A DNA stretch of 63,727 nt, filler included, from Sanchytrium tribonematis (lineage: Eukaryota): the NCBI GenBank assembly GCA_018985235.1. It is 6 parts of 6 records of this genome, joined end to end, with 100 filler letters (N's around TTAATTAATTAA, not from the genome) between each part and the next. Parts side by side here need not be neighbours in the genome. Positions count along the whole stretch, not along the records: positions 6,590 to 13,047 come from JADGIG010000524.1; positions 13,148 to 19,589 come from JADGIG010000525.1; positions 19,690 to 26,122 come from JADGIG010000526.1; positions 26,223 to 32,643 come from JADGIG010000527.1; positions 32,744 to 63,727 come from JADGIG010000051.1; 1 more part is not named here. One strand, 5' to 3'. Made by a program: the position numbers and the translations under genes. Below are positions 7,447 to 63,727 of this stretch, in pieces. Under the pieces are notes generated by a model. The model saw nothing but the letters and a program-made list of their open reading frames with translations. It searched no databases and had not been told where the DNA came from. The first letter of the stretch is position 1. Each line of letters opens with the position of its first letter.

Positions 7447-10309
7447 ATGGAAAATCCTTTTGATCAAGTATTGGCAGATTTAAATCAACAAGAAAACATA
7501 TTTTCATTCGATAAGATACACAAAGTTGATCTAGAAATTGATGATTCCATTGAACATAAATTTGGCGACTTTGAGTTAAAGATTGAGGTTGGTGAAAATA
7601 TAGCTATTCATTTGTACTATCTTGGAACCAAAACTTTAGGTGTCCCATTGTTATTTCATTTGTCTTATGCCAGCAAAGAATCGGGGGTTCAACATGGTAG
7701 ATTAAATCCTGTTGATAATAATTTTGGTTACGATAAATTCTGTCTTTTTCAACCAAGTAAGTTGAAATTTGAACTCAGAACAATTAATGACCCAACCAAT
7801 ATTCTTTATGAACAGTTTCAAAATTATCAATCCAGATTAGCAACTGGATGTATTGGATTGAATAATCAAGGTGCTACGTGCTATATGAATAGTTTGTTGC
7901 AATCATTGTACCATACAAACAATTTTAGAAAAAAAGTATATGAAATTGACACTACGCAAGTCAAAGATCCTAAATCTTCTTTGGTCTTAGCACTGCAAAG
8001 GTTATTTTATAAATTGCAACGGTATGACGATGCTGTTGATACAAACGAGTTGACTGCGAGTTTTGGATGGCATCATTACGAGGCTTTTCAACAGCACGAT
8101 ATACAGGAACTATTAAGAGTTATTTCCGACCATATTGAAGAGCACTTGAAAAAACTAGAAAAGCCTAATTTTATAAAATCTATATTTGGAGGAACCTTAA
8201 AGTCGTATATTAAATGTTTAACTATTGATTATACAAGTGAACAATTTAATCCATTTTATGATTTACAATTGCAAATCAAAGAAAATGGTAATTTGGATAA
8301 TGCATTTAAACAATACTTGGTACAAGAAATGCTAGATGGGGAAAACCAGTACTCACATGAAGGTAAAAAGTATGATGCACACAAGGGACTTATGATATAC
8401 GAATTTCCGGAAGTTTTGCATTTGCAATTGATTCGTTTTGAGTATGATTTCCAGCATGATGCTATGATCAAATTAAATGATTACTTTGAATACCCTAATG
8501 AAATGGATGTTTTGCCCTACTTAGACCAAACAAGTCCACAATACGAGCAATACAAAGATATTGGTCTAATTTATGAATTATATGCAGTAATGGTACATTC
8601 TGGTGATGTAAATCATGGCCACTATTATGCTTTTGTCAAGTATGAGAATAAATGGCTCCGTTGCGACGATGAAAGAGTCACTATTGCCTTGAATCAGCAT
8701 GTATTTCAAGATAATTTTGGGTCGCACGATCTAAATACTAGAACCAATAGATATAAGAGAAACACAAATGCTTACATGTTGGTATATTTTCGTAAAAATA
8801 TGCTGGATGAAATAGTTTGTCCAGTAAACGACATTCCAAAACACGTCAAATCACAAGTTGACTTGGAGATGCAACATTATCTCAAAGAAAAAGCGGAACA
8901 AGCACATTTTCAATCTCATGTAACAGTATTATTTTTCAAGCTAAAAGATGTAAAAGAATACAAAGGAGTTGGATTGTTGCAAATATCCCACCCATTTTTA
9001 CCAACCACCCCATACCTTGCCAAAGAAGTCACCAATGAAACCACTTTTGCATCCGTTCTTCAGCAGTTTTCAAACGAGGAATCTGATATGGTTGACGTCA
9101 AACCGTACTACACAATCCAGTACATAAATGGAATATGGAGACCGATTCACCATATATCTGAAAATAATAGTAATAGCGAATTAGGAAGATATTGCGAGCC
9201 CCAAAGCAGGTGTGTTTATATTTTACAGATGGAAGAAACAAGAGACAGCGAGAATGGTCTTTTAATGTTTTTCAAATATTATGATGGTAAAAGTATGTGC
9301 TATTTACATTACGGATATTACAAGTCTGAGACATTTTCTGAAATCATTGAGCAGTTGACCAAAAGATTTGATTTGCCTAGTGGCTTGTCTATTTATGAGG
9401 AGCCTAGAGATTCGGCGATTGATCCTGCAACAATTGTAGGAGAAATAATTGATTCTGATGGAAACGTCTTTGTTTTGAGTCAATTTCCGATTGCTCAGTT
9501 CTTAAATTACCAACAAAGTTTGCTTGAATTACATGTTAGTCACAAAAGCGAAAAAGGCAAAGAATTTAAACAGATTCTAAGTAGCTCTCTAACATATGAT
9601 TCAGTTGCAAATATTATAGGTAAATTTGAAAATTGCGATCCTAGTTTCATTAGGATATATGCTCCAGATTTTGTGAGAAGATCTGATTTTAGACTCATCA
9701 AGCCAAGAATGGAAATTCAGTATGACGTCAGTGACATGAAAATTGAAGAATTTGAACAATACAATGAAGTGGTTGTGACTCAAATTGGCCAAACTATTAA
9801 GCAAATCGTAATATTTATTAATTTAGAAAACCCACAAGCTTATGCTCAAACAAACAGATACTGTCCAAGAAATCTTGAACAAATTAAATTTTCCTGGAGG
9901 TATGGTTTACTCCACTTTGCATGGAGATGTCAAAGCAAGATATCCATCAACCACTTTAATGGAACTTATACCAACATACTTTCATATCCATGTTGACTGT
10001 CGAATGGATGAATGTATCAAAGTGATACATTTTAACGAAAATCCTTCTAACAAGCATAGCATCCCATTTTTCGTACCCTTCCATAAAACATATAAAGATG
10101 TCAAACCCTGGATCCTTAAAAAATTGGGTTTGACTGAATTTGGCAAGATCAAGGTATTTTGGTTAAATGAGGCCTTCACTTCGAAACCAACTCAACGGGA
10201 ACTGGAAGAAAATGATGAATTAACTATGTCAGAGGTAAATTATATCGGTTTAGACCACGTAGAAAAAAGACCTAGTCAATCAACTAACGCGATAAAGATT
10301 AATAAATAA
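7447..10309 (+). CDS. UBP15: Ubiquitin-specific protease USP7/Ubp15; join(7447..9807,9827..10309)
   Basis: GLNNQGATCYMNSLLQ, QHDIQE, HSGDVNHGHYY, C-terminal IGLDH. A 19-nt intron joins the two ORFs in frame. Confidence 0.9.
9808..9826 (+). other. 19-nt spliceosomal intron
   Basis: GTAATATTTATTAATTTAG; removal gives ..KQI|KTHKLMLKQTDTV.., fusing ORFs 7429 and 9842. Confidence 0.88.
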
Positions 10310-10310
10310 T

Positions 10311-11099
10311 TTATTCAATAAATGAGTTGCGAGATAAACTGTTCAATGATTGCATCGATTGCCGCTGCAAAGTTTTCAAATCACTAGTAGTTGAAAGCCT
10401 TCTTAAATCTGGTGCACAGCGGATTTCATTCCATGAGGAAATTGTGTCTGTGGGTGCAACTGGAGAATCTACAGTAGTTTTTTTATTTTGCTTGTATCTT
10501 CTCCACATAACACCAATTAAAAAAACGAGACCTAGTGCCCCGAATACAATCACAAAATAAGCGTAAATTGGAAAATCACTAAGATGAACTGGTGCAGAAT
10601 CACCAGCTAATGTTACTTGATTTATATCAGAACCAAATTCTCCAAAATAAAGGCCGCACGAGTCTTCCAAATAATGTCTATGAAATCTCATAAAGTAGAA
10701 CTGTCTTTGACTTATTGCGAACTGATTCTCCAAGTATCTAGCCAGAGAGTCTTCATAGTGCATTAAACTTTTCATGCAATCTGTACATGGCAGTTTTAAA
10801 GGAGCCAAGGTCTGGTTTGTATAATAGTAAGTTGGCTTGATGTATTCCAAATATGAAACCCAGCACACCTCACCATCAACTTCAGAACATTTTGCATTAT
10901 ACATTCGTATAAGTAATTGAGCTATTTCCTTATTTTGACAAGGTAGAGTGGTTTTTAATTCCTCCTTGCATTTATCTGAACACTGATTTTCAATCTGTTC
11001 AAGACTGCCTTGTATCTCAACCGAGTATTGAAACGTACATTCTGGAGATATTTTCGGGCAATTTTCATTCAGATTTATCACATATGGTTGGGATACCAT
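10311..11099 (-). CDS. Cys-rich single-pass membrane protein, unknown function
   Basis: Cys-rich N-terminal domain, TM segment IYAYFVIVFGALGLVFLIGVMW followed by RRYK. Confidence 0.7.
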   Translation of the reverse strand: MVSQPYVINLNENCPKISPECTFQYSVEIQGSLEQIENQCSDKCKEELKTTLPCQNKEIAQLLIRMYNAKCSEVDGEVCWVSYLEYIKPTYYYTNQTLAPLKLPCTDCMKSLMHYEDSLARYLENQFAISQRQFYFMRFHRHYLEDSCGLYFGEFGSDINQVTLAGDSAPVHLSDFPIYAYFVIVFGALGLVFLIGVMWRRYKQNKKTTVDSPVAPTDTISSWNEIRCAPDLRRLSTTSDLKTLQRQSMQSLNSLSRNSFIE

Positions 11100-11218
11100 A
11101 ATTGGGAGAGTTTCAGATGTATATACTTGGCATTTTGTTACACGTTCGACTTATCATTTCTCGATAATTATTGTTGTTATAAAAGAGCTACAAATTGGGT
11201 CCATCTCTTTCAACTAAA

Positions 11219-11515
11219 TTATTTAACACTATTTATTGCATTTACTGCATAATCGATTTGAATCAGGATTTTATCTCGAATGAATTTATCATTATCACAA
11301 GAAGTGTCATCGTATCTTTCGTTAAGTAACTTTTTTAATTTTTCCATTAATATCAAACCATTTTCTCTTGCTTCTTTAGACATTTCATCGGGATATTTAG
11401 CGCGTTCTATTACACTTCCGTATTGAAAAGCCTTTCCATATGTTGCTTTAACTAGCCAGTTTATATATTGTTTTCTTTCCTCAAAAGGAATTGGATTTTC
11501 ATATAATTTGCTCAT
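11219..11515 (-). CDS. Hypothetical protein, 98 aa
   Basis: ATG-started ORF filling an otherwise empty gap; no recognised motif. Confidence 0.5.
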   Translation of the reverse strand: MSKLYENPIPFEERKQYINWLVKATYGKAFQYGSVIERAKYPDEMSKEARENGLILMEKLKKLLNERYDDTSCDNDKFIRDKILIQIDYAVNAINSVK

Positions 11516-11549
11516 CTTAGAACTAATAAAAAATTATTTATCAATCAAC

Positions 11550-11696
11550 AAATGTATCAGATAAATGGCTAAAATGATGGTTCCAGGATCCCATCCGCGA
11601 ATCCTGGGATTTGTTGTTGTTTCTGACCCTAATATGAATAACGGTGATGACTAAAGTCATTCATTTCAAATTGAATGAGTATGTCATCCTCGCTGT
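11550..11696 (-). ncRNA. Candidate box H/ACA snoRNA
   Basis: Two hairpins (GATGAC/GTCATC with TCATTCA/TGAATGA; TCAGA/TCTGA with CCAGGAT/ATCCTGG) separated by ATATTA (ANANNA), ending ACA-TTT. Confidence 0.4.
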
Positions 11697-11698
11697 AA

Positions 11699-12901
11699 TT
11701 AACATTTTATTTTTAACTCTAAGCAATCCGTAATGCGGATGAAAGCTTTGGACAATTCGTCTTCTGTCAATGCATATGTCCACCTAAACCAGCCAATGTT
11801 CTGGTCCATGAATGCCTGCCCTCTGGGCATATAAACACCAAACTTAATAAGCTCTTTGAACAGTTCCTCTTCTGTAGAAGTAATGTGGTTTGAAAGATTG
11901 ACGTATACAAAAAATCCTCCATCTGGCTCTAAAAATGGAATATCGTAAGCATTTAAAAACGAGACAACTTTTTTCAGGCATTTTTGGCAGTGGAGTTTGT
12001 TATTTTCTAAAAATCGGTCAACTTTTTCAGTCTGTGACAAAAAATTTGTTAAATGAATATCTGCAAATCTGCTAATTGCAGAAAAATAACAAGCATTGTG
12101 CATCATTTTGACCAATTCGACATTAAGTGATCCAAATACACCAACTCTAATGCCATTCATGCAAAAATCTTTGGAAAAGGACCAAACAAAATGGGTCTTC
12201 TCTTTATCTATTATATTGACATATTTTGGATGGAATAAAGAGTAAAATGGTTTATAAGTGGTCAGCCCATATATTTCGTCACTAATTAGATGTAAATTGT
12301 GCATTTTACAAAATTTGATTACATTTAAAATCTCAATTTCCTCGCGAAATTTCCCAGTCGGATTTTCTGGATGGCAAAGTATTACCGCTTTGATTTTGCT
12401 GTATTTTTCAAAGGCAAGTTCAAATTCTGCCATATCAATTTTATAGTTTTTGGTGTGAATGGGAATCACCTTGCACTGCATTCTATACTGTAAGTCTAAT
12501 AAAAAGCCACCATAAAATGGAGTAAAAATAATTACCTCATCATCTACATCGCATAAGGTGAATATCAATTGTTCAATAGTGCTGCCACAGCCATTATGTA
12601 AACTTAAATTTTCACTTTTCCATGTTGTGCTTAAATGACGATTGAATAAGTCTGCAATCAAACCACGTAATTTCTTGCTACCTTGCAACTCGCCGTATTT
12701 AAAGTCATCTGCCTTCATTTCGATGTCAGTAAAATAAGTGCTTAATTCTTGCAATTGGCTGGTGTTTTCAGCAACCCCACAGTTTATAATTCCATCGCGA
12801 TTAGCAATTGAATATGGATTGCTTTGCTGCAAAAGCAGGCCTTTAAGCATAATTGGTAGGTCAGTACGACTTCTCTCAGACCACATTTCAGTTGGTTTCA
12901 A
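11699..12901 (-). CDS. PLP-dependent class I/II aminotransferase, ACC-synthase-like
   Basis: GVAEN, PFYGGF, HPENPTG, LISDEIY, WSFSKDFCMNGIRVG (PLP lysine), GWFR. Confidence 0.88.
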   Translation of the reverse strand: MKPTEMWSERSRTDLPIMLKGLLLQQSNPYSIANRDGIINCGVAENTSQLQELSTYFTDIEMKADDFKYGELQGSKKLRGLIADLFNRHLSTTWKSENLSLHNGCGSTIEQLIFTLCDVDDEVIIFTPFYGGFLLDLQYRMQCKVIPIHTKNYKIDMAEFELAFEKYSKIKAVILCHPENPTGKFREEIEILNVIKFCKMHNLHLISDEIYGLTTYKPFYSLFHPKYVNIIDKEKTHFVWSFSKDFCMNGIRVGVFGSLNVELVKMMHNACYFSAISRFADIHLTNFLSQTEKVDRFLENNKLHCQKCLKKVVSFLNAYDIPFLEPDGGFFVYVNLSNHITSTEEELFKELIKFGVYMPRGQAFMDQNIGWFRWTYALTEDELSKAFIRITDCLELKIKC

Positions 12902-13047
12902 ATATGGACCAATTTTTTTATAAACTGATCCCTGTTTTTATTTTTACTCTTTTACCATTTGACTACTCGCAAATCGCGCATATTCATATAAACAACGCGT
13001 TCACTTGGTCGCACTACCTAACCAAAAAATACTCTAAGAGCATACAT

Positions 13048-13147: not shown

Positions 13148-13378
13148 AATGTATTTCTTATATCATCTCAATATCCCAAAATGGTTAAAGTAGACATGAA
13201 ATCAAATGATGATAATAGCGGTGTCAGTGAATGGATAAACAATACATTTATGGACGAATTAGAAAATATAAGCATAAGTAATAGCACGGGAGATAAAAGC
13301 GACCTACCGATAAATGTGCGGATAGTGACTCTGGACGACTTTCGCTCTATTAGGGGCAATTGCCTTGAAGGATTTTGA
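13148..13378 (+). CDS. 3' end of a hypothetical gene (partial)
   Basis: Frame open from contig start to TGA 13378, followed by AATAAA. Confidence 0.35.
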   Translation, partial: NVFLISSQYPKMVKVDMKSNDDNSGVSEWINNTFMDELENISISNSTGDKSDLPINVRIVTLDDFRSIRGNCLEGF

Positions 13379-13406
13379 CAGTAAATAAATGGATATACAT
13401 ATTTTA

Positions 13407-14609: not shown

Positions 14610-15735
14610 TTGAGTGAAAAAAGACCAAAGAACTTTGAAAAGTCCAATTTTGCACATGAACAAAATGTCACCAACTATTTGAGTAGTGCAGCGACTAGCA
14701 ATTTGTCTAATCCAAATGGATTTCCATATTTTGAAGAGTCTCCATTTTCAGCTTTGCATGCCCAACTGGATGATACTAGAAAGAGGAGAGAGGAAAGAGA
14801 TCGAGATTTATTAAAATATGCTTCACAACGCAAAGTGTCCGAGGAAGAGAGCAAAATACTTCATTCAGTAGACATGGATGCATTTTTGAAAGAATGGGAT
14901 GAAGCTAGTACTTTGTTTTAATTTAGGAAGGCCTCCAACACCAACTAAACTCGGAAAGTTGGTTGGAAAAAACAAGCTGCTTAATGCATTGTTGCCATCA
15001 AAGTTATTGAGAACAGTACATGGAGTTCCAGTAGAAGAGGGAGTATTGAAAGAATATGTAGCATATCAAAAAAGAAAAGAAGCTCTTAAAAACGATACAG
15101 CGGTCCCAGTAGTAGAAACCTATGGAAAAGTTTCATTGCTAAAAAATGGATTGCGAAAATTAATTTTCGGTAGCAACAGCGCCAAGGAAACTTCTAAGGT
15201 AGCCAGTGGTTCAGAAAGTAGTTTTTTGTCCGAACGATTAGACTCAGGTCAAATCAAGTGCTCCGATATAAGCAAAATAGGAACTGGAATGGTTTGTAAA
15301 GAATCTGCAAATTTGGAACCCCAAAACAAAGTTCCTTTCTCATCATCGGCAGTTTCTTGTAGCACAAAAAAGTTAAATATGCTAGAAAAGGATGATTCTG
15401 ATGAATCAAAGCCTCTAAGCTCTTCGCACATTAAAAATGTTCGCGACCTTAAAATCAATATTTTTCCTAGAAAAGCAATGTGGAATGCATACAACGGTTT
15501 TCATGATTTTAAAAAATTTAACCCAACCAGAAAAAAGTCGACTGCCCTCTCAAGAGAGTCAGCTTTGGTACTGCATCGACATGCACGAGTATTAATAGGA
15601 CAAGAAATGAAAATTTTGCTTGCAATTCCCATTAACGAATATGATGAAGATATTATACTTTCAGAGGAAAAGATATCGAAATTGGAGCAACTCACAATTT
15701 CTTTTGCCCGCACAGTGTATACAGGCAGAACGTAG
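14610..15735 (+). CDS. Hypothetical protein, two exons split by intron 14908..14926; true start unresolved (frame open back to 14424)
   Basis: A 19-nt intron joins ORFs 14610 and 14899 (..WDEA-R-RPPTPTK..). Confidence 0.55.
14908..14926 (+). other. 19-nt spliceosomal intron
   Basis: GTACTTTGTTTTAATTTAG; frame-restoring and same consensus as the validated introns. Confidence 0.75.
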
Positions 15736-15903: not shown

Positions 15904-18187
15904 ATGACACAAAAACAGCAATCTAAACAGCAACAAGAAAAGCTGGCAGAAGCAAATGACGTGGTTTACAACATTATTCCTACCACAGATAACAAACCCT
16001 CTGAAATTAAAACAAGTTTACCTCCCAAGTCATTAGACAGACAGCCATCCACAATCTCTACACAATCGGCCATTAAATCGAATGCTCCTGCTTCTAATAG
16101 CAAGCAGGTTCAATTATTTGAAGTTTCCCACGAAACAGCGAACAAAGTCGGTGGAATTTATACTGTTATTCGTACAAAAGCAGCATCAACGTCTAAATTA
16201 TACCCGAATTATACGATGATAGGTATGTTGAATCAGCAACACGCAAGTATGGAGGTAGAACCCAGCGAACCTTTAAATCCCCATATTGAGGCTGCAGTCT
16301 CTAGTATGAAGCAACAAGGCGTCCATATTTTGACGGGAAAATGGCTGATCGATGGTTCCCCGAATGTGATTTTATTCGATTTAGGATCATCATGGCATCG
16401 ATTAAATCAATGGAAACAAGAATTGTGGGATATCGGAAGTATTCCCAGCTATGATCACGATACTGAGCAGAACAATGCGATTGTTTTTGGATTTTTAACA
16501 GCCTGGTTTTTATCAGAATACACCAAAAATGTTACGAATGCAGAGTCTTTATCTAAATTAAACAACAAAAATGCCAAATTTAATCAATCTACAATTGTGC
16601 ATGCTCATGAATGGCTCAGTGGTGTCTGTTTGTTACTTATTAAATCATGGAATCTTCCAGTGAGTACCATTTTCACTACACACGCTACATTGCTTGGTAG
16701 ATATTTGTGCGCTGGACAAGTTGATTTTTACAATCATTTGCAATATTTTAACTGCGATAAAGAAGCAGGACAGCGTCAAATTTATCACCGTTATTGCATC
16801 GAGAGAGCATCCGCACACAATTGTCATGTATTCACAACTGTATCTCACATCACAGCTTATGAATCTGAACACTTATTAAAGCGTAAACCAGATGGCGTAA
16901 CACCAAATGGTTTAAATATTATTAAATTCGCAGCAGTGCATGAATTTCAGAATTTGCATCAGCAAAGCAAATTAAAAATCAACGAGTTCATCAGAGGACA
17001 TTTTCATGGTCATTTAGATTTCGATTTGAATAATACACTCTATTTCTTTACTGCAGGTCGAATGGAATACAGAAACAAAGGTATTGATTTGTATCTTGAG
17101 AGTTTAAGCAGATTAAATTATAAATTACAGCAAGAACAAAAGGAATGGGAGGCACAAAAGAATAGTCAAGCACCACAATCTCCAACAACCTCGACTGCAA
17201 GTCCAGTTAAAACTGTGATTGCATTTATTGTGACATCTGCTCCACATCATTCTTACACTGTGGATGCCATGAAAGGACAGGCTGTTATTCGACAATTGCA
17301 GCAAAGCATTCATGACATACAGAGCAAGATTGGGGACAAATTGCTAGATTTGTGCTTGACAAACAGATTAAATGAATTATCTAACAAGACTGGAGAAGGT
17401 GCAGCAGCCAGTCTTTTGAGTCCAAATGACATGACTATTTTGAAAAGAAGAATTTTGCAATTACAATCTTCTACGCCTCCTGCAGTTACAACGCACAATA
17501 TTGTCAATTCGCATTCTGATGAAATACTTCAAAATATCAGAAGATTGCAATTATTCAATTTGTCTCATGATCGAGTGAAGATAATTTATCATCCGGAATT
17601 TCTCAATGTAAATAGTCCATTGTTCCCAATTGAATATGAGGAATTTGTAAGAGGATGTCATTTGGGTGTATTCCCATCCTTTTATGAGCCATGGGGCTAT
17701 ACACGTAATTCTTTTTCATTTAGCAGCAGAATGCACTGTATTAGGGGTTCCATCGATTACCACCAATTTAAGTGGATTTGGATGCTATATGGATGAAATG
17801 ATTCATGATTGTCCGGAATATGGCATCTTTGTGATGGACAGAAGATTGAAGAGCGTGGAGGAAACCATTAATCAAATGGTGGACTGCATGGTCAAATATT
17901 GCCATTTTAGTCGAAGAGAACGAATTCAACTTCGAAATAGGTGTGAACGATTATCCGATCTGCTAGATTGGAAAGTAATGGGAAAAGAATATGAACGAGC
18001 AAGACAATTAGCCACCAAAAGATTCAATGCAGAATGTGGTTTGGATGAAAGTGAGGAGGAGAGTGACAATGAAAGTAGCAATAGTCCATTATTGCAGCGA
18101 ATTCAAAGTACCACAGAGCTGGGCCAATTAAGCAGACTAAAATTGGATGAGGAACATGCTGATGATATTGTGGTGGAATACAAATAA
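15904..18187 (+). CDS. GSY1: Glycogen synthase (GT3); join(15904..17704,17724..18187)
   Basis: ANKVGGIYTV, HAHEW, GCHLGVFPSFYEPWGYT; splicing restores the invariant GYTPAECT. Confidence 0.97.
17705..17723 (+). other. 19-nt spliceosomal intron
   Basis: GTAATTCTTTTTCATTTAG; ACA C|CA GCA GAA TGC gives TPAEC exactly. Confidence 0.95.
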
Positions 18188-18193
18188 ATTTAT

Positions 18194-19589
18194 TCACCTG
18201 CTGTATATCTGTCTCAAATGATCAATATTTTCATCTTGAATCGGCAAATGCTGGAGCAAATAACAATCAAGTTTTTCTTGATGGTAATTTGCAATTTTGT
18301 TGTTCATGACCACTAATTCAGATGAGTTTTTAAATTGGCTAGTCAAGAAATCATATTCATCATCTGTTAAATCTTCTTTTGCATACTCGACACTAAGCAT
18401 CTCAACGCCATCTGCAATATATTCCAATAAAATGTCTAATGCAATATCATGACTGATTTTATATTTGATACATACGGTACAACTAAATTAGAAATAATTA
18501 CAAAATATGGCGAAAAGAATAGCTCATAAAATCTTTTAAATTTTTTAAAATTCTATCAAAATTGACTTGTATTTGGGGTATATCTAGAAAGAGCCTCAGC
18601 TGAATCGTAAAATATTCCTCCAATCGGTCGACAGACTCACACTGTTGTATAATAAATTCCAAAATGTTGAAATAATTTGACATTGCTTCAGAAGTGACAA
18701 GATTTAAAAGAGTCATATGTTGCCAAGCGTAGCATATTTCAAGTTGAATTTCTGGAGGATATTCTGATAGATATTCTAACAATTGAGCCAGATAATCAAT
18801 GTTAAAATCATTTGGGCGATCTATCAATTTTTCGAAATAAATTGCAATAAATTCAGACTCATGCCCATACATTGTAGCATATTTGGTGAAATAATGAATG
18901 GCTTGTGAATATTCGATTTGATTCAGCTCATCAAGATTAATTATAGACATTGAGAATACAACGAGCTGCAAATGCGCATCATGAAGAGTGGAAACTCTCA
19001 TTAATTGGAAACAACTTTGAATGAATTCCGTAGAATCCAATAATTGATCGAATATTTTGCAACATACGGGATATAAATTAGGTAAATTGCTCGGCTGGTC
19101 TCGCAGATCATAGTGATCACTTAGACACCTTTGAAATACTGATTCTAACTTTATTTCAAATTCATTTAATCTATAAAAATCAAGTAGTGCTTCCAGTTCC
19201 AAATTCGTATTCAAGAAATCAATCTGCAAATTTATGGGTGTTTTGATTTGAAGTGCAACCAGAACCAATAGAAGTTCAGTAGATGGATCTGAAAGACTTT
19301 CGACAAGAGAATTAGAGTCATATGGAATATGATACTGATTTTTAGTGCAGTAATACACCAAACGCGAATAATTTTTGGGGCTGGTTTGAAAGTGAGATAA
19401 AGTATTCTGAATTTTGTTAAAGTATGATGGAGATAGCTGATGATTATGCTGAATCGTATGCAAAATCATATTAGGCAATAACAAGTTTTCGATTTCTACA
19501 AAATGGTTATCTAAAATAGTCTGAAATAAATATGGACTCATATCCAAACACGAATCATCAACTTGGAACTCGTCTAGCTCATTGATATC
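18194..19589 (-). CDS. Helical-repeat (HEAT/importin-like?) protein, partial; intron 18483..18501
   Basis: Frame open from contig end; Leu-rich and helical-looking; the intron joins ORFs 18498..19547 and 18194..18427. Family call is tentative. Confidence 0.55.
18483..18501 (-). other. 19-nt spliceosomal intron
   Basis: GTAATTATTTCTAATTTAG (minus strand); gives ..RHI-F-CTVCIKY..LLEYIADG. Confidence 0.85.
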
Positions 19590-25120: not shown

Positions 25121-25121
25121 T

Positions 25122-39329: not shown

Positions 39330-40556
39330 ATGAATGATCAGATTTATCTACGTTCACTTGGTATCAACAAAATACATGATGTTGTCGATCATTTGATACC
39401 AAATTACAATGTTAGCAAGGAATTGAGACAACATACAGGATGCGTGAACACGGTCCAATTCAACAAATCCGGCGATTTAATGGTTAGTGGATCCGACGAT
39501 AAGTATATATGCTTGTGGGATGGATTTTCTTTCGAGTTAAAAGAGAAAATATTTACAAATCACGGTCACAATATCTTTTCTGCAGTTTTGCTGGAAAATG
39601 GTGAAGGAGTTCTAAGTTGTTGTGCCAAAGGCGATGTTAAGCTATCGAATTTCAGTGGGGATAGCACGCAAATATACAACCATCAAAATGACATGGCATA
39701 CCAAATTGAACTGGTCGATAGAAACACATTTATGAGTTGCGGAGAAAATGGAATTATAATGACATATGATTTGCGAGAAGCCCATTATGGGGCATCGGTT
39801 TTGGTAGATTCTCATAAGGTCTATAATTTTGAAAAAACTGTACACCAGGCGTCTCATAAAAACACGATGACAGGAATTCCAAGTATGTCAATGAAGAACG
39901 ATATTTATTTTGCAGCCGCCTTTAACGACGATTTTGTTAGGACGTTTGATCGTAGATGGGCTGAAATTTCAATTAATGCTTACTGTCCTGATAAATTCAA
40001 TCCTTATAGTGCTACCAAAGATTCGACTATTATTAAAAGTCGGTTACATATGACTAGCAAAATCACAAGCTGCCAATACGATCCCCATGGGAACGGAAGT
40101 TTGGTTATAAGCTATGGCGGAAATTGCGTGTATGTTATAGATCCTGACCAAGATTTCACTGGCGATAATTACTTTAAAACAAACATTTCGGCAAAATGCC
40201 TCTCTGGACATTTGAATAGAAGAACTATGATTAAAGAAACTTCATTTTTAGGTAATAGTTCTCGCTACGTTATGAGTGGAAGTGATGATGGCAGATTATA
40301 CATTTGGGATCTCGATACGGAAAAAATTGTGAATTGCTTTGAAGCTGACGACGATGTTGTGAACTGTACAGTATCACACCCTTTTATACCCTGCATTGTA
40401 CTAAGTGGAATTGACAATAGTATAAAAGTTTGTTTCCCGGAGCACGAATCGTTTGATGAAGCGCAATTTGAGGAATATCTGGGAAATAGAGAAATTTCTG
40501 AAACCATGGCTTTAAGACTCCCACTGGATCGTCTAATGATGAGTACTTCATTTTGA
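39330..40556 (+). CDS. WD40 protein, DCAF6/DCAF8-like
   Basis: HTGCVNTVQFN..MVSGSDD, HGHNIFS, GHLNRRTMIKE, YVMSGSDDG, VVNC..HP, SGID. Confidence 0.88.
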   Translation: MNDQIYLRSLGINKIHDVVDHLIPNYNVSKELRQHTGCVNTVQFNKSGDLMVSGSDDKYICLWDGFSFELKEKIFTNHGHNIFSAVLLENGEGVLSCCAKGDVKLSNFSGDSTQIYNHQNDMAYQIELVDRNTFMSCGENGIIMTYDLREAHYGASVLVDSHKVYNFEKTVHQASHKNTMTGIPSMSMKNDIYFAAAFNDDFVRTFDRRWAEISINAYCPDKFNPYSATKDSTIIKSRLHMTSKITSCQYDPHGNGSLVISYGGNCVYVIDPDQDFTGDNYFKTNISAKCLSGHLNRRTMIKETSFLGNSSRYVMSGSDDGRLYIWDLDTEKIVNCFEADDDVVNCTVSHPFIPCIVLSGIDNSIKVCFPEHESFDEAQFEEYLGNREISETMALRLPLDRLMMSTSF

Positions 40557-40663
40557 CTTAGTTCTGAGACAAGGTGGATTTGATGTTACGGACGAAGATT
40601 ACGAGTCTGATTAGAAAGAAAATAAAGTGAAATTCCAGATAGGATTATTTTTTCTAACAAAAG

Positions 40664-41279
40664 ATGAATATTTTTGCACCAAGAAAGACACCCCAAGAAA
40701 TTCTCAGGCAACACAAGCGATCGATTGACAGAGCAGTCAGGGATATTGACCGTGAGAGATCGAAACTGGAGCAGCAAGAGAAAAAATTGCAAGCTGATAT
40801 AAAAATTATGGCAAAACAAAATATGAATGCATGTAAAATAATGGCAAAAGATATTATAAAAACACGGCATCATATAACTAAACTATACGAGATGAGAACT
40901 CAAATGCAGGCTGTAGGATTAAAGATACAGACTCTCAGTAGTAATGCTCAGATGGCAGAAGCAATGAAAGGAGTTTCTAATACCATGAAAGTAATGAACA
41001 AACGCATGCAACTGCCTCAAATAGCTAAAATCATGCAGCAATTTGAGCAAGAAAGTGAAATTCTTGATATGAAACAAGAGATGATGAACGACAATTTTGA
41101 AGACATGAATGAGGAGGAGGAAGACGAGACAGACGAGCTTGTACAACAGGTTTTAGATGAAATCGGAATAGGAGTTTCCACATCTGTAGCTTTAATTAAT
41201 TTAGGCACCAGTAGCTCCTAACTCGCAGCAAGCTGTAGATTCAGATTTAGAAAAGAGGCTCGAGCAGCTTAGGAAATAA
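40664..41279 (+). CDS. VPS2: ESCRT-III subunit Vps2/CHMP2A; join(40664..41185,41205..41279)
   Basis: Snf7-family core (QQVLDEIGI); splicing restores the C-terminal MIM1 motif DLEKRLEQLRK. Confidence 0.95.
41186..41204 (+). other. 19-nt spliceosomal intron
   Basis: GTAGCTTTAATTAATTTAG, phase 0. Confidence 0.92.
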
Positions 41280-42102: not shown

Positions 42103-43150
42103 ATGATTATAAAACTTGGATCTCAGAAATTTGAGCCTGAATATGTTGAAAACAATGACGATGTTTGGCGAATAACAGACAAACTGACTGTAGAAAAGGG
42201 AGACAAATCCTATGAAGTAAACAGTGTAGACTATGGTGATAAAATTTATTTTGGCAATGATATGAAATTGTACCATAGCAAACCTATTCAATACACAAAA
42301 GTTGATTTGACAGCACTGAAGGAATCTATTGACACGGCAACGGATATTGTAGACAAGAGAAAACTAGCAACTGCTTTGCAAGTGCAATATATTGGTATTC
42401 CAAATCTTGATGCAGCTACTCCATTGGATGATATATATTACAGAGATATGCATGTATTTACTTTATTCAAAAGTGAACTACTAGCTGGAGCTTGTATTGG
42501 AATTGAACAATTAAACAAAAATGAAGACAAAGACAACTTGGAATTGTTTGGTTCGACTTTCAGAATTTGTCACTTTTTTATTCTTAAGCCTTTTCAAAAT
42601 ATGGGGCTTGGGCGGCAACTATACGCTGAAGTCAAAAAATTCGTTAATGAAAACTTTGATAGACTTTGTGTTGAGGATCCAAATGAGTTATTCTGTAACT
42701 TAAGAGATCATTGTGACTTGAGAGAAGTACAGGAAAGCGGTGGCTTGTCCGCTTTACTAAATAGGGCCGATGGGGAGTCATCGAAAAGATCCAAATTGGA
42801 CCCCATCTCATTCGTGGGCAAATTCAATGGAATTCGAAATTATATCTCAAAGTTGCAATCGAAATTCCGATTATCTCCAGTAATTTATACTAACGAAGGA
42901 TCAGTCAGTTAGAGTGTACGAGATGACCATTTTAGATGAGCTTTCTTTCGGAATGGAAAACAAATTTGATTTATTACAAAACTTTGAAGTTATGTCGAAA
43001 TTTATGGAAATGTTGGCTGATCGAATTCAGACTCAAAACCAAACAACAGAGGTATTACTGCCAGTTGAGCAGGACCAAAATCAAAGTTTACAACAGACAA
43101 GTTTGCTAAGAGTGCAAGATTACCTAGATGTATTAAATAAAATGAGATGA
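42103..43150 (+). CDS. HAT1: Histone acetyltransferase Hat1; join(42103..42879,42899..43150)
   Basis: RICHFFILKPFQNMGLGRQLY, VEDPNELF..LRD..DL; the splice gives KFRLSPDQSVRVYEM. Confidence 0.88.
42880..42898 (+). other. 19-nt spliceosomal intron with TACTAAC branch point
   Basis: GTAATTTATACTAACGAAG, phase 0. Confidence 0.92.
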
Positions 43151-48688: not shown

Positions 48689-50307
48689 ATGAGCAAAGAA
48701 AAACTGATAATATTTGACACAACATTACGAGATGGCGAGCAGAGCCCAGGAGTCACCTTGGATACACAGGAAAAGATTAAAATAGCTAAACAATTAAGTA
48801 TTTTGGGCGTTGATGTTTGCGAGGCTGGATTTCCTGTGGCAAGTGTTGGGGATTTTGAGAGTGTCAAATCCATTGCAACCATAGTGGGAAACATAAATGA
48901 TGGCAGAAAGGAACCTATGATCATATGTGCATTGGCCAGGGCAACAAATAAGGATATCGAAACTGCTGCGAAAGCAATAGAACCAGCAAAAAATAAGCGG
49001 ATTCACACGTTTTTGGCAACTTCCGATCTGCATCTAAAATACAAGCTTAAAATCTCCAGGGAGGAATGCATTACTAAGGCGGTAAATGCAGTCAAATTGG
49101 CAAAGTCTTTTGTCAATGATGTTGAATTTAGCTGCGAAGATGCTGCCAGATCTGACAGGCACTTCTTATGTCAGGTGATACAAGAAGTAATTAAAGCAGG
49201 TGCTACTACCTTGAACATCCCCGACACCGTTGGCTATATGCAGCCAGAACAGTATGGAAGTCTTATCAAATACTTAATCGATAATACGCTTGGTAGTGAA
49301 AATGTGATTTGGAGTAATTTAATTCTTACGTAGGCACACACTGTCATAATGATTTAGGACTAGCGACGGCTAACACCTTGGCTGGAGTCAATAATGGTGC
49401 CAGGCAAGTTGAAGTCACGATTAATGGGATAGGTGAGCGGGCTGGAAACACTTCATTGGAAGAAATCGCCATGACCCTTTATGTTCATGAGAAATCCTCT
49501 CAAGTCTATACCGACATTGTTAAAAATGAGATTTATAAAACAAGTCAATTGGTCAAAAATTTTACAGGAATGGTAATACAGCCAAACAAAGCGATTGTTG
49601 GTAAAAATGCTTTTGCCCACGAATCAGGAATACACCAGGATGGTGTTCTCAAAAATGCAGAGACTTATGAGATTATAAATCCAGAGATAGTTGGAATTCC
49701 TAAAAACAGTATTGTTTTAGGAAAACATTCTGGTAGAAACGCCTTGAAGAGCAGAGTTGCAGAACTGGGGTTTATTTTGAAAGATATTGAACTCGATGAG
49801 ATTTTCAAGACGTTTAAGAAACTTGCGGACTCTAAGAAGAACATTACCGACGATGATCTCATTTCTATACTTACCGGCGAAGAGACGTCAAAACAATTTT
49901 ATGAATTAAAATCGCTGCAAATTGTAGCTGGAACGTCTGCACTGGCCACGGTTTCAGTTGAAATTTTGAAAGAAAATGAACAAGAAGCAATAGCAGATGC
50001 AGCAGTTTCTAGAAACGGTGCATTAAGTGCGATATTTAGCTGTTTAGATCGCATAGTCGCATCTGATAATATAGTAGTGACATTAGATCATTACCAAGTT
50101 ACCAGTGTCACCGAAGGCGGTGACAGTATAGGGCAAGTTAGTGTTAAAGTAAGATCCCAAGTAAACGAAAAATCAGTAGTTATTGGAGGGCATGCGAATG
50201 ATGTGGACGTCTTAATTGCCTCTGCAAAAGCATATCTTAAAGCATTGTCACGGGTCAAATTGGCCAACGGACGTAATGAGACCCGGGATACTTCGAGCGA
50301 AATTTAG
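48689..50307 (+). CDS. leuA: 2-isopropylmalate synthase, bacterial/plant LeuA type; join(48689..49313,49334..50307)
   Basis: [21 protein letters not shown], spliced [32 protein letters not shown], regulatory domain. Confidence 0.95.
49314..49333 (+). other. 20-nt spliceosomal intron
   Basis: GTAATTTAATTCTTACGTAG; TGG A|GC ACA CAC TGT CAT restores WSTHCH. Confidence 0.93.
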
Positions 50308-52590: not shown

Positions 52591-52601
52591 TAAACTAGTT
52601 T

Positions 52602-52972: not shown

Positions 52973-54624
52973 ATGGTAAGTTTTGAATGTGATGACATAC
53001 CTACATTCTCTGATTGAATGATGAGTACTAGACTCCTGATTCGCACAACTCATGTAGATTGAAATTATATTATGACTTTACGTTCTTCTCAAAAGCAATA
53101 ATTATAATAAATTAAACCTAATTACTTTTCAGAATAATGAACTCCTTGAAATGGTAGAAGACAATTCTACAGCTGCAGAATCTGCAAAGCAGTTGGGAAA
53201 TAAATATTTTAAAGAAAAGCACTATGACAAGGCCATTAATGCATATACGGAAGCCATCAAAATTGAAGAGCGACCAGCTTTTTATTGTAACAGAGCAATG
53301 GCAAATTTTCACTTGGAGTATTATGGCCAAACAATTAGTGACGCAAACTCGGCAATATTACTAGACGACAAATTTTTCAAGGCCTTCTACAGGAGAGGCT
53401 GTGCATACGTACAGTTATTAAAATTTGATGAAGCTATTAAAGATTTTAAATTAGTTTACACAAATACAAAAGATCCAAATGCCTATCAGCACTTGGTATC
53501 ATGCGACAAAATCATTAAGCAAAGAAAATTTGAAGAAGCCATTAGAGTAGAGGAAACAAACCCATTCGACAAAGAGGATTGGAAGCAGATGATCGTTAGC
53601 GATTACTCTGGTCCGTCGGTCGATGCGGAATTTAGTATTGAGCTGGTGTACAAGTGTGCAGAATATATGAAAGAAAAAAGTCTGCATAGAAAACTTCTAA
53701 TGAGGATATTAGTTCAATGCTACGAAGCATTCAGATGTCTAGACTCAATTGTAGATATCAAAGTCCCTAAAAATGGACTCTTGACGATTTGTGGTGATAC
53801 TCACGGGCAATATTTTGATGTTCTGAATATATTCGGGAAATACGGGTGGCCTAGTGAGTCCCACTATTATCTGTTTAATGGAGATTTTGTGGACAGAGGG
53901 TCATGGTCTGTTGAGGTAATTACCTTGCTTTTGCTTATCAAATGCGCTTTACCCAACAGCATCTATTTGACCAGAGGAAACCATGAGACTAATGACATGA
54001 ATAAGGTTTATGGATTTGAAGGTGAAGTGAAAGCAAAATACTCTTCCTCTTTATTTCCATACTTCACAGAAATTTTTAATGCCTTACCTCTAGGTTTTCT
54101 AATTGAGAACAGAATATTTGTTTGTCATGGTGGTTTGTGCAGCGAAACTCCTGATATTGACAGTTTAAGAAAAATCAATAGATTTAAACAACCACAGCAA
54201 GGATTTTTCACTGAACTCTTATGGAGTGATCCTTGTGATGCCGATGGCGTAAATCCAAGTAAAAGAGGTGCCGGAATTAGCTTTGGTTCAGATATAACTA
54301 AATCTTTTTGCGAAAAGAACGCAGTAGAACTTGTCATTCGATCGCACGAAGTGAAGGAAGAAGGTTTTGAGATTGCACACAACGGAAAATGTATAACGAT
54401 TTTCAGCGCACCAAATTATTGCGATCAAATGGTATTTTTAATTGATATAGGGTAACAAAGGAGCGGTAATTCATTTTTCTTTCTCCGAGACGCCAAAGGT
54501 TGAGCCTAAAGCCAACTTGGGTATCGTTGGTGGAATGAATGGGTGGATTGATCAGTTTTTAGCCGTTCCTCATCCTAATGTCAAGCCTATGGCATATGCT
54601 GGTGGATTTGGACAAATGCAATAA
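52973..54624 (+). CDS. PPT1: Ser/Thr protein phosphatase 5; probable join(52973..52975,53133..54431,54451..54624)
   Basis: TPRs plus GDTHGQ, GDFVDRG, RGNHE, SAPNYC; splice restores CDQMGNKGA and VPHPNVKPMAY. The ATG-only first exon is inferred; ATG 53151 is the alternative start. Confidence 0.93.
52976..53132 (+). other. 157-nt snoRNA-hosting intron (predicted)
   Basis: ATG|GTAAGT ... CCTAAT TACTTTTCAG|AAT AAT GAA CTC CTT GAA ATG, in frame with PP5. Confidence 0.6.
52985..53042 (+). ncRNA. Box C/D snoRNA, double guide
   Basis: C GTGATGA 52989, D' CTGA 53010, C' ATGATGA 53018, D CTGA 53036, terminal GAA/TTC stem; guides TACCTACATT and TAGACTC are complementary to conserved LSU rRNA segments. 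Confidence 0.85.
54432..54450 (+). other. 19-nt spliceosomal intron
   Basis: GTATTTTTAATTGATATAG, phase 0. Confidence 0.95.
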
Positions 54625-54646
54625 ATTTATTTTTTGGCTGAGACAA

Positions 54647-55781
54647 ATGGGTATCAAATCCCTAACGAAAGTTTTGACAGAACACGCACCAAATGCGACC
54701 AAACTTAAGCCAATAAAATCCTACTTTAGCAGAAAAGTTGCGATAGACTGCAGCATGTGGATTTATCAATTTTTGGTTGCCGTTCGAACCGGAGGCAATA
54801 ACATGCAAGATAGCGAAGGAAATACAACGAGTCATTTAATCGGATTGTATTATAGGACAATAAGAATGCTGGAAAATGGAATTGAGCCTGTTTTTGTTTT
54901 TGACGGAAAACCACCAGATCTCAAGTCCGTTGAATTAAACAAACGAAAAGCAAATAGAGATAAGGCAGAAAAGGATCTGCAGAAAGCGAAAGATGAAGGT
55001 AACGCAGAAGACGAGGAAAAGTTTAATCGCAGATTGACTAAAGTCACTCCTGAACATAATGCCGAATGTCAAAAGCTGTTGACTTTGATGGGAGTTCCTT
55101 TTATTATTGCACCATGTGAAGCCGAAGCTCAGGCTGCAGAACTTGCAAAAAAGGGGAAAGTTTTTGCTGTAGGTACAGAGGATGCCGATACACTCTGTTT
55201 CGCAACTCCAGTCTTATTAAGAAATCTAAGTGCCGCTGATAACAAAAAACTCGATATTAAAGAAATTACTTTATCCACCATTTTAGAGGATATGAATTTA
55301 ACTCAATCTCAATTTATTGACCTTTGCATTTTGTTGGGATGTGATTATTTAGAGTCGATTAAAGGACTGGGGCCTAAATCGGCTATGAATTTGATAAAAA
55401 AGTATGGAAGTATAGACAAGATCGTAGAGGCTAAAGCTTCTGACAAAAATGGAAAAGGTCTCAAATTTGATATTCCTGAAGTTTGGGATTATCAACAAGC
55501 GAGAGAACTGTTTATCAACCATCCAGTCATACCAGCCGAAGACGTTGATTTTAAATGGATCGACCCTGATGAACAAGGCTTAGTAGATTACCTTGTGACT
55601 GAGAAAAACTTCAGGTAATTTTCTTTAAATTAGCGAGGATCGAATCCGGAATGGTGTAGCAAAAATCCGTAAGACTAGAACAAAAGGAAAGCAAGGTAGA
55701 CTTGATGATTTTTTCAAATTTTCAAGTGCCAAAAGGTCTACAAATGAAAATTCTAACCCTGTCAAAAAAGTTAAAAAATAA
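54647..55781 (+). CDS. FEN1: Flap endonuclease 1; join(54647..55614,55634..55781)
   Basis: MGIKSL, AIDCSM, FDGKPP, EAEAQ, LLGCDY; second exon has FSEDRI and the PIP box QGRLDDFF. Confidence 0.97.
55615..55633 (+). other. 19-nt spliceosomal intron
   Basis: GTAATTTTCTTTAAATTAG, phase 2. Confidence 0.95.
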
Positions 55782-55795
55782 ACTAACTTTGTTTA

Positions 55796-58090: not shown

Positions 58091-58095
58091 TGGCC

Positions 58096-60843: not shown

Positions 60844-61686
60844 ATGCTCAAATTGCAGCGCGACATTGAAAAGCAAATAAAATGCAATCATATTATTTAT
60901 TATGAGCAGCGCCCTTGCTCATATTACGTTAATTCTGCTCAATGGCACAACGACAATCATTCAGAATTCGAGAATATTGAAAAAATTGAAAATTACAGAA
61001 GGGGATATCTGCTGTACATAAATATCAACTACTGCATTGGATCTTTTACAAGAGTATCGTACAAATCGTTCTTAAGCACTTCTTTTTCAGTGGAAGAAAG
61101 CACGGGCCTAAATTTATTACATCAAAAACGCATCCAGTATGTTTATAAGATTTTATCCAACTTCTTTTTCGGAGATGTGAAGCTCACGGTGGGAGAGTTG
61201 ACGAAATCGGATATCGGAGTCTCTACAATGAAGCAATTTGAATGGTGCAATGATGAATTTCAAGATTTGAAGGAAAAATGCACAATGATTTCGACAAAAA
61301 GAACTCAGCCAGTGAATTTTAAAATCGATTCAATTTATATAAGTTACTCCTATGCTAGGCTAAATAGAATTAATGAATACATCATATCGTGCGAGTCAAA
61401 TTCTCTTGATTTGTCGCTGGCTGACGATGATAGTCGAGTACTTATTCACATATTATGTTCATACGAATTCTATCTAGATAATTTCGTGGAAAAGAGAGAC
61501 CCTTACTTTTTGTTTGTTTACTGCCAAAAGTTGTCCCGAACTGTTGGCAAAGTACACAAATCTCTTAGAGTCAAAAATACGCACGAAAATCTCAAAATGT
61601 TTCGAAGCTACTTGTTTAGCCATTCCTTGCGCATATTGGATGAGCTTTTTACAGTTTTGGAATTCCAAAAAATTACTGAAATCTAA
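60844..61686 (+). CDS. DALR anticodon-binding-domain protein (DALRD3/ArgRS C-terminal-like)
   Basis: YISYSYARLNRI, DPYFLFVY..L...LRVK..R..L; no ArgRS catalytic HIGH motif visible. Confidence 0.7.
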   Translation: MLKLQRDIEKQIKCNHIIYYEQRPCSYYVNSAQWHNDNHSEFENIEKIENYRRGYLLYININYCIGSFTRVSYKSFLSTSFSVEESTGLNLLHQKRIQYVYKILSNFFFGDVKLTVGELTKSDIGVSTMKQFEWCNDEFQDLKEKCTMISTKRTQPVNFKIDSIYISYSYARLNRINEYIISCESNSLDLSLADDDSRVLIHILCSYEFYLDNFVEKRDPYFLFVYCQKLSRTVGKVHKSLRVKNTHENLKMFRSYLFSHSLRILDELFTVLEFQKITEI

Positions 61687-63727
61687 TGCTCGACATTCTG
61701 AAGAACAAGGTCCCTTAATGACAGGTAACAAGAACTCTCCATGGCGAACATCAATTGCTCCCATTTATCCCTAATCTCTGTGTTTATAGTATTTTTTAAG
61801 GAAGGTATGTCCTGCAGCATAGAGAGAATCATAACATAGAGCTCCGTAAATTCGCTGGAAGTTGATGCCAATTTTGCAATGCTCAGTAATCTCATTGTGC
61901 GTTTGTCATTCTTCTCTTTCACCAATGATGATTTTCGACTCTGAGGGGCGCTATTTAGCTCAATATCCGTACTCAAATTTAAATTGGAGCTAGAATTTCG
62001 ACGAAGTTGTCCACTTTCATAGTCTATAGGCCATTTGAAATTAACATGTAGAATTTTGAATGTTTCGAGATCCATAGGGAGCTTGAGATAATCTTTGTGC
62101 TGAAGGACATAAGATTTGGCATTTTCACCCGCCAACTGAATAGTCTCAAACAGATCTGCGTATTGCTTTCGGCTGTATAGCAAATGACAATGTCTGTCGA
62201 ATAAATCATTAACATTATGAAACCTTGTGAAGTAATCCACAAATTCATACTTGTACCGGTCTGCAACCATATCAACAATGTGAGTTGAGTCTAAATAAAT
62301 AAGGAAAACCTCCGATTTTGTTAATATATTCAAGTATTTCTCTACTTAATTGCATGTCCCTCACATCCAGAGCACCTTTTAGAAGTTCAATACAGTCATT
62401 TTCCTGAAAACTATTATCATTTTGGCTTAAAACTAAATAACAACTTGCTGTTCTGTACTTTTGAAGATTTAGACATTTTCTTAAAATTGAGTCGGGATCT
62501 TCTTCAACAATATCAAATAAGTCTTTCCAATAAACGCTTTCCATTTTGCGTGCCACTTTTGCAAGCACATCATAAAAATTGGAATAATATTTCAGAACAC
62601 GAACTAGCATTTTTAAATATTGACTGTCATCGGTTTCCCTACTTTTTTCCCAAAAGTATGAAAATATTATTTCTAAATAAACTTCATACTGCGGGTCGGT
62701 CTTAAAATGGTCCAGATAGGCTTGAAGAAGTTCTTGTTTTTTCATGTTAATGCATAATTGAAAGGCAAAAATATGCAAAAAGGGCTGTGTTTTACTTGCA
62801 AACTTGATGTATGGCGCGTCATCATGAAAAACACGACTAGCCTCTAACTCAATAATTAATAATAGACCCTTTTGAATATCGACTGCTACTGGTAATGAAT
62901 GAACGTTGTAATTAACCTGAAAATCAAATGGCGTTTTATCAATCATACAAAATATTTTAACATGCCCAGGGCCCAGCAAAACAAAGCAATGTGAGAATAA
63001 ATCTGTGAAAATTGGAAAATAACTCAATCCTAGAAGAGAATATTTGTAGTCAATTTGGAAAGTTTTTTTCAATGTCGTAATTTTATCGACTTCCTCCACC
63101 TTGTACACCATACATGCTATCTTGTCGTAAGTACTCATCACTCCGGACAAGCTACTAGAGGAAATATTGTTCAAAACGAAGCCCGTTAGATTTTTAAAAG
63201 GAAGATCAAGCTCAAATAAATATTCGATATGTTTCAATCCGTCAAAACTATAAGCTGCTACTGTCCCTTGCTCTTCATTTTTCCCAAAAAAATACAAGTA
63301 TGGCTTAATATAATCCAGTCGCTGGGCAGGATATCCAATCCTTATCCTAGGAACACTTTCTAGATTTATTTCCTGACTAAAGTCTAATACAGTGACAAAC
63401 TGTTCGGAATAATGATTCTTTACAGTCGTGATTAAGCATATCAGGCAGTTATTGACAAAAACAATGGAATCTATCGTAGTGGAACTACCATCCTTAAAGT
63501 CTATTTCTTGCCAAACGACTTGAGCTTTGCTAAAAATATGAATTTTAGTCAGTCTTGTTAAAAAGAGTAAGTCTTTGGTGTTCAATATATTAACAGCGGA
63601 AAATTTCTCCAAAGTAAAACCAGTAGGATAGCTCAATGGTATAAAATGACAACCGCCAGGAATACTGAAAGGTTGAGAGACCGTGGTTGCTATGTGTAAT
63701 TGATGTCTAGTTAGTAAGCATGGAAAC
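61683..63727 (-). CDS. RIC1: RIC1 (Rab6/Ypt6 GEF subunit), partial; intron 62291..62309
   Basis: ARKMESVYWKDLF...TASCYLVLSQN matches the RIC1 domain; frame is open to the window end. Confidence 0.8.
62291..62309 (-). other. 19-nt spliceosomal intron
   Basis: GTTTTCCTTATTTATTTAG (minus strand); gives ..NKIG-D-STHIVDM.. joining the two ORFs. Confidence 0.85.

Follow-up and report, generated by a model that had tools for sequence, protein, structure and literature searches.

What are the short GT...AG segments that interrupt the open reading frames of otherwise recognizable genes in this stretch of DNA? The window, by which we mean the whole stretch of 63,727 bases, is made up of six contigs (positions 1-6489, 6590-13047, 13148-19589, 19690-26122, 26223-32643 and 32744-63727) joined by linkers of the form N44-TTAATTAATTAA-N44, and has a GC content of ~31-37%. 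A sequence-only reading had listed ten such segments on three separate contigs. All ten are present at the coordinates claimed, nine of them 19 nt long and one (49314) 20 nt, and removal of each joins two open frames. Their distribution also holds: one lies on the second contig (9808), three on the third (14908, 17705 and 18483) and the rest on the sixth. An eleventh segment, absent from that list, was found at 40543-40561, which gives ten segments of 19 nt and one of 20 nt. All eleven begin with GT, end with AG and, once removed, leave a restored reading frame. Judged by their sequence, the eleven segments are most likely spliceosomal introns of U2 type, near-fixed in length, and would be removed from mRNA.

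A position matrix was built from the nine 19-nt segments of the earlier list and used to score the 323 GT-N15-AG 19-mers on both strands. The ten top-scoring 19-mers are those nine and 40543-40561. At 19 nt, frame restoration coincides with the branch motif described below in 8/10 restoring versus 4/313 non-restoring segments (Fisher p = 8e-12). Half-site matrices for the six 5′ bases and the nine 3′ bases, with the spacing left free between 15 and 60 nt, returned eight matches at 19 nt and 0-2 at each other length. A third, matrix-free test took every GT..AG of 12-100 nt on both strands and asked whether a long frame is rescued and whether positions -9..-5 read yTnAy; 19 nt yields nine segments with both features and 20 nt a single one, against 0-3 for each other length. 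Most of the matches at other lengths pair an upstream GT with the acceptor of a 19- or 20-nt case, and further candidates at +4431, +4474 and -28276 fall in retroelement regions. The observation is confirmed as real and as more than chance.

Alignment of the eleven segments from both ends demonstrated a common anatomy. The 5′ end reads GT, then A (10/11), any base, T or C at +5 (11/11, never G) and T (9/11), giving a 5′ site of the form GTA(A/C/T)TT; five of the eleven start with GTAATT, and 62291 has the weakest 5′ site of the set (GTT). A spacer of 4 nt (5 nt in the 20-nt case) separates the 5′ site from the branch motif. T at -8 and A at -6 are invariant (11/11), and yTnAy occupies -9..-5 in all but the FEN1 segment, which has TTAAA there. 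Position -4 is variable, -3 is T in 10/11, and AG follows; in four segments TAATTT directly precedes AG. We take the A at -6 as the predicted branch point. The 20-nt segment at 49314 still has this A at -6 and carries its extra base 5′ of the branch motif, so that the branch-to-end distance is constant. Because the earlier selection used only GT, AG and frame, the branch motif counts as independent evidence. In sequence, then, the segments show the complete anatomy of U2-type introns, at a near-fixed length.

In four genes, comparison with homologs defines the excised stretch with single-base precision or close to it. For glycogen synthase, exon 1 ends at position 485 of the Pfam profile, the split codon is position 486 and exon 2 runs from 487; the spliced protein aligns without gaps to seven homologs through GYT/PAEC (slashes mark junctions here and below). 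Spliced 2-isopropylmalate synthase (LeuA) aligns without gaps to six homologs across its junction, where the HMGL-like profile passes from position 184 to 192. In human FEN1 numbering, the first FEN1 exon runs to residue 316, the split codon supplies S (residue 317) and the second exon resumes at 318; this second exon contains QGRLDDFF and aligns also to a FEN1 peptide entry, 1u7b_B (PCNA-binding peptide). Exon 1 of protein phosphatase 5 (PP5) ends with CDQM at residue 461 of PDB chain 7obe_A, exon 2 carries AVPHPNVKPMAYA, and homologs read CDQMGNKGA across the junction. The PP5 of the window also has an insertion of ~15 residues after GNKG (54451-54550, plus strand) relative to all aligned homologs.

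Domain order in three further genes agrees with splicing, on looser grounds than the junctions fixed by homology. The USP7-type gene has UCH and USP7_ICP0_bdg domains before the 9808 junction and USP7_C2 after it (Pfam profiles). PDB searches gave no match for its exon 2 and a spurious match only for the end of exon 1. In Vps2 the Snf7 profile match reaches position 156/171, four residues short of the junction, and the last 24 residues end in DSDLEKRLEQLRK. The RIC1 profile match extends to position 160/176 and ends at the last residue before the junction at 62291. In the WD40 gene, splicing at 40543 changes the C-terminus from ...LMMSTSF* to ...LMM-I-LRQGGFDVTDEDYESD*, so that a four-residue dead end is swapped for a 17-residue acidic tail encoded in a last exon of 16 codons. 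The earlier claim that several segments are fixed by conserved motifs thus stands for glycogen synthase, LeuA, PP5 and FEN1 by alignment or profile. It does not extend to a Vps2 MIM1, for which a PDB search with the 24-residue exon came back empty; the last Vps2 exon fits that motif and may be a MIM1, a label that no tool confirmed. The features of all eleven segments are collected in Table 1.

Table 1. The eleven GT...AG segments, with the genes that they interrupt and the evidence for each junction. The last column gives bridging by contigs of the DNA run described in the text.
Position	Strand	Length (nt)	Phase	Gene	Codons joined	Evidence	Bridged with 0 gaps
9808..9826	+	19	0	USP7-type ubiquitin hydrolase (GTAATATTTATTAATTTAG)	795 + 160	yTnAy at -9..-5	
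14908..14926	+	19	1	Gene without assigned family, 14424-15735	161 + 268	Branch motif	Yes
17705..17723	+	19	1	Glycogen synthase, GYT/P/AEC		Pfam PF05693, homolog alignment, DNA contig	Yes
18483..18501	-	19	2	Gene without assigned family, 19589-18197	362 + 95	Branch CTAAT	Yes
40543..40561	+	19	1	WD40 gene, near 3′ end		Frame, motif, DNA contig	Yes
41186..41204	+	19	0	Vps2/CHMP2 (Snf7 family), ahead of last 24 codons		Snf7 profile, DNA contig	Yes
42880..42898	+	19	0	Gene with weak GNAT match only (GTAATTTATACTAACGAAG)	265 + 83	Contains TACTAAC	Yes
49314..49333	+	20	1	2-isopropylmalate synthase (LeuA)		Gapless homolog alignment	
54432..54450	+	19	0	Protein phosphatase 5 (PP5), CDQM/GNKG		PDB and homolog comparison, DNA contig	Yes
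55615..55633	+	19	2	FEN1, ahead of C-terminal tail		Human FEN1 residue numbering, DNA contig	Yes
62291..62309	-	19	1	RIC1-domain gene (GTTTTCCTTATTTATTTAG)	472 + 201		

The position of the segments within their genes is uneven. Nine of the eleven lie at or beyond 70% of the open frame (upstream codons over total), and several directly precede short C-terminal tails (FEN1, Vps2, PP5 and WD40). Intron-poor yeasts have a 5′ intron bias, and the 3′ position seen here is the opposite. This arrangement bears on whether the introns, if real, are poorly spliced or often retained, either as decaying remnants like those of microsporidia or as a means of making C-terminally truncated isoforms. Placed just before tails such as the PCNA-peptide-like tail of FEN1, the last 24 residues of Vps2 and the C-terminus of PP5, a retained intron would give a truncated rather than a null protein. 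Inefficient removal also has precedents in two papers: very short microsporidian introns are spliced with low efficiency (PMC13644364), and mikrocytid introns of 16 and 17 nt are spliced at 63% and 37%, respectively (PMC10245619). Retention in glycogen synthase, LeuA and USP7, however, would cost 150-320 conserved residues, and the splice signals are well preserved in all eleven segments. We consider frequent retention unlikely, and spliceosomal introns that would be removed from mRNA remain the preferred reading.

Public sequencing runs matching 48600-56000 offered a check on the DNA itself. Logan contigs of one DNA run, with a summed depth of ~80-280, bridge eight of the eleven sites with no gaps (Table 1), 17705 within a single contig of 3159 nt. 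Site 49314 is not counted as bridged under the 31-letter rule because the DNA contig there starts 4 nt before the intron. The sole indel in the contigs compared is a 1-nt deletion variant at 52933, outside introns and long ORFs, and a joined form lacking the segment was not found among them. The sequence-only reading had named assembly indels as what would speak against introns; at the eight bridged sites the high-depth contigs contain none.

The same contigs reveal a second haplotype (13866-19263 and 45810-54982), which makes up between roughly a quarter and 40% of the depth; from this it follows that the sequenced material held two alleles or strains. Its differences are clustered single bases, 36 synonymous and 18 non-synonymous overall, with 15 of 17 synonymous in LeuA exon 1; those in second exons are too few to test for a frame switch. 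Around one intron, a minor-haplotype contig differs at 14877, 14905, 14930 and 14958, with no difference or indel inside 14908-14926.

These data also bear on whether the segments might be skipped by something other than a spliceosome, that is, by translational bypassing, by programmed frameshifting, or by DNA excision in the manner of the internal eliminated sequences of ciliates. All that would favor these is that reading the protein requires a short segment to be passed over, and short bypass elements are known from phage T4 gene 60 and as yeast mitochondrial byps. Yet GT...AG ends with yUnAy at a fixed distance are splicing signals rather than bypass signals, inspection of the flanks revealed no matched take-off and landing codons beside the segments, and the DNA contigs carry the segments at full depth. 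Skipping of this kind is very improbable. That the segments are artefacts or lesions, whether indels from assembly or amplification or insertions that shift the frame of pseudogenes, is hardly credible: the assembly is fragmented, and a frame break in an AAA ATPase gene at ~58096 that has no GT..AG solution indicates that some breaks in it may be errors, but the gapless bridging and the intact minor haplotype described above speak against indels, random 19-nt insertions would not all share a GT start, an AG end, T at -8 and A at -6, and the excess of synonymous differences makes the flanking exons look constrained.

If the segments are spliceosomal introns, U1 and U6 would pair with the 5′ hexamer, and U2 base-paired to yUnAy would leave the A at -6 bulged out. 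The absence of G at +5 would predict a U1 5′ end that is altered to match or relied on less, and the spliceosome may be modified, as the sequence-only reading proposed. The acceptor would be the AG three bases after the branch A, and intron length would be set by a minimal distance of 13-14 nt from 5′ site to branch together with a fixed distance of 5 nt from branch to end.

Several points weigh against this interpretation. Model spliceosomes require much more than 13 nt between the 5′ site and the branch. An Rfam scan found no small nuclear RNA in the window; a tRNA scan was also empty. The half-site matrices were trained on the earlier list's own nine 19-nt cases. The loose 19-nt pattern is not enriched in the window (12 occurrences versus 7.6 expected, a number reached by 13 of 100 shuffles); what is special is the location of the pattern matches, not their number. 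In-frame introns of 18 or 21 nt that lack a stop, and any lying no more than ~15 codons from a start codon, would go undetected in the scans, so that the near-fixed length holds for detectable introns only, and the sample is eleven introns in 63 kb. Four of the eleven (14908, 18483, 40543 and 42880) are supported by frame and motif, with no homolog across the junction. The public runs matching 48600-56000 were one DNA run and no RNA run, and that DNA run may be the assembly's own source and so is not fully independent. Lastly, the bridging comparison covered the nine sites from 14908 to 55615, and 49314 among them is not bridged.

The genes of the window are eukaryotic and extremely densely packed, many neighbors lying 7-50 nt apart. 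Convergent or divergent neighbors at 47474/47492 are separated by 17 nt, and LeuA begins at 48671, with 6 nt between it and a stop at 48664. Amoeboradix gromovi, a sanchytrid (EukProt EP00835), is the closest named relative for all three proteins compared, with identities of 63% for glycogen synthase, 71% for LeuA (533 aligned columns) and 72% for PP5, while ordinary fungi are ~50-56% identical to the window proteins. These comparisons bear out the earlier description of a fungus-like nuclear genome and support as its source a sanchytrid-like fungus distinct from A. gromovi. A scan of Joint Genome Institute (JGI) metagenomes for glycogen synthase exon 1 retained 80 loci, with identities of 46-58% throughout, and hence no DNA of a close relative is among them.

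At all three genes compared, this species and A. gromovi differ in whether an intron is present. The glycogen synthase and LeuA ORFs of A. gromovi run uninterrupted through the intron sites of the window. At the 49314 site the ORFs of the three closest LeuA relatives are uninterrupted; besides A. gromovi, two other relatives (77% and 67% identity) lack the intron. Another glycogen synthase relative ends in ...EPWYFTN, about three codons before the window's intron site, which suggests an intron nearby. The PP5 gene presents the reverse case. The four closest PP5 relatives, A. gromovi among them, cease to match PP5 at the same residue: after RGNHET[NT] come a G and a few more residues (GIFI*, GILKLT*, GLVCSC.. 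and GRLN*), where the window reads straight on (HETNDMNKVYGFE). Such breaks are as expected of a phase-1 G/GT... intron that the window would lack, for an exon G followed by an intron GT encodes Gly. By the genetic code, the GILKLT-stop tail of A. gromovi would force Y-T-N-A-C at the branch position, and the intron would be 20 nt long if the stop is TAG. The second PP5 ORF pieces of these relatives were not recovered by a search of protein representatives with the DMNK..CDQM stretch, which returned nothing above 59% identity. Tiny introns that break ORFs thus seem to characterize the sanchytrid clade, with presence differing at every gene compared, and we infer that individual introns are gained and lost quickly between species.

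Public protein models of these genes are affected. The proteins of the window in EukProt are plain ORF calls, and the sanchytrid genome paper, in the excerpts available, describes its proteins as TransDecoder ORFs on contigs and contains the word intron once, in the title of a reference (PMC8371127). The public glycogen synthase ORF has 630 residues versus 754 when spliced, ~125 residues short; LeuA is in pieces, one of 278 residues; and the public PP5 ORF has 434 residues. The prediction that gene models would go wrong at the segments was correct for these three genes, whose public ORF-based proteins are cut there.

Literature searches on sanchytrids and introns revealed no paper that deals with nuclear introns of this group, supplements aside. 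Searches on ultrashort or tiny introns turned up ciliates, nucleomorphs, mikrocytids, myxozoans, dicyemids and microsporidia, but no sanchytrid. The sequence-only reading had been right to name ciliates and nucleomorphs as known cases, but its list was incomplete, since it omitted mikrocytids (16-17 nt; PMC10245619) and Blastocystis, with a 19-nt median (PMC12817076). The introns of the heterotrich Stentor coeruleus and other heterotrichs (15-16 nt) resemble those of the window in near-fixed length, GT-AG ends and high AT content; the Stentor branch A, at position 10 of 15, lies at -6 as it does here, and the commonest Stentor intron starts with GUAAUU, as do five of the eleven (PMC9505925). 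Stentor differs in that its introns are four bases shorter and number thousands, in an intron-rich ciliate macronuclear genome of an unrelated lineage, and its branch consensus is weak whereas yTnAy is found in 10/11 here (PMC9505925). Chlorarachniophyte nucleomorphs (18-21 nt) share the length class, the narrow range and an extremely compacted genome, but a nucleomorph is the relic nucleus of an endosymbiont of green-algal origin with >800 introns in ~300 genes (PMC10245619). The window, by contrast, comes from a free fungal nuclear genome with roughly 0.2-0.3 introns per gene. Mikrocytos mackini (16-17 nt) is likewise a gene-dense parasite with few introns (224 in 179 genes) of uniform length and conserved sequence; mikrocytids differ in belonging to Rhizaria, in having introns two to three bases shorter, and in that theirs are reported only from gene-expression and cell-cycle genes and not from metabolic enzymes (PMC10245619). 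In the window, glycogen synthase and LeuA are interrupted as well.

Microsporidian introns are longer, at least 23 nt, and are not reported as fixed at one length. Microsporidia nevertheless resemble the source of the window in being Holomycota and in their compact parasite genomes with few introns and strong signals, and the branch motif of Encephalitozoon cuniculi, CTAAYTT, is approached here, where the TAATTT found before AG in four segments matches TAAYTT (PMC2483917). Intron-poor lineages in general converge on strong branch motifs at a fixed distance from the 3′ site, E. cuniculi being an example (PMC2483917). The introns of the window are thus a new lineage for a known phenomenon. An independent origin is plausible from the phylogenetic position, and these are likely the shortest introns yet seen in fungi.

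A number of further candidates were examined and dropped. The 19-mer at +16366 lies inside the continuous glycogen synthase ORF; -53010 is intergenic and then runs into stops; a 25-nt segment at +7444 leads into a short dead frame; one of 66 or 84 nt at -13345 follows the RagA stop; and an ATG/GTAAGT...CAG segment of ~155 nt upstream of PP5 is not needed by the complete PP5. Half-site matches of 18, 20, 21 and 22 nt at -57448, +53414, +21577 and -61108 had low scores, and an exhaustive list of GT..AG segments joining two ORFs contained too much noise to be of use. The AAA ATPase break has no GT-AG solution either. In this region (55796-58977, minus strand) the ATPase ORF, 58977-58096, stops right after the AAA core, and an ORF of 763 residues begins 5 nt on in another frame. 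The region does contain a 3′ half-motif (TTGATTAAG), but no GT lies 19-20 nt upstream of it, and the downstream ORF has no AAA lid (Pfam). The break may reflect two genes, a non-canonical intron or a real frameshift.

Elsewhere in the window, 3487-6471 (minus strand) holds an intact ORF of 994 residues with reverse transcriptase and RNase H, and the contig at 26223-32643 contains only decayed reverse transcriptase fragments; retroelements thus persist in an otherwise very compact genome. Long ORFs fill the 31-kb contig except for one long stretch, 43150-44100, where contigs of the DNA run break, depth climbs to ~268 and a loose end begins at 43564; it is probably a repeat. The gene at 19589-18197 has its 5′ end cut off by the contig end. 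LeuA (48671-50307, plus strand) is of the short type, with ~535 residues, and its nearest matches beyond sanchytrid-like relatives are the aphelid Amoeboaphelidium occidentale and metagenome-assembled genomes of Chloroflexota, at ~50-54% identity. This hints at a bacterial-type enzyme common to aphelids and sanchytrids.

Extended to the clade, the argument becomes an evenly balanced proposition: sanchytrids would carry about two thousand length-measured introns of 19-20 nt, the shortest in fungi and their opisthokont relatives, with the -6 branch geometry and GUAAUU start of Stentor and a fast turnover between species. Public proteomes made up of plain ORF calls would explain why they have escaped notice, and their 3′ bias, before C-terminal tails that bind partners, would let retention make truncated isoforms. 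Introns below 21 nt are known from few lineages, to which this would add a fungal one, and the -6 branch position common to Stentor hints at a shared lower limit from spliceosome geometry. Close relatives that differ in intron presence at identical sites offer a system for the study of intron gain and loss. If the same is true proteome-wide, the gene counts, orthology calls and long-branch phylogenomics of the phylum could be distorted.

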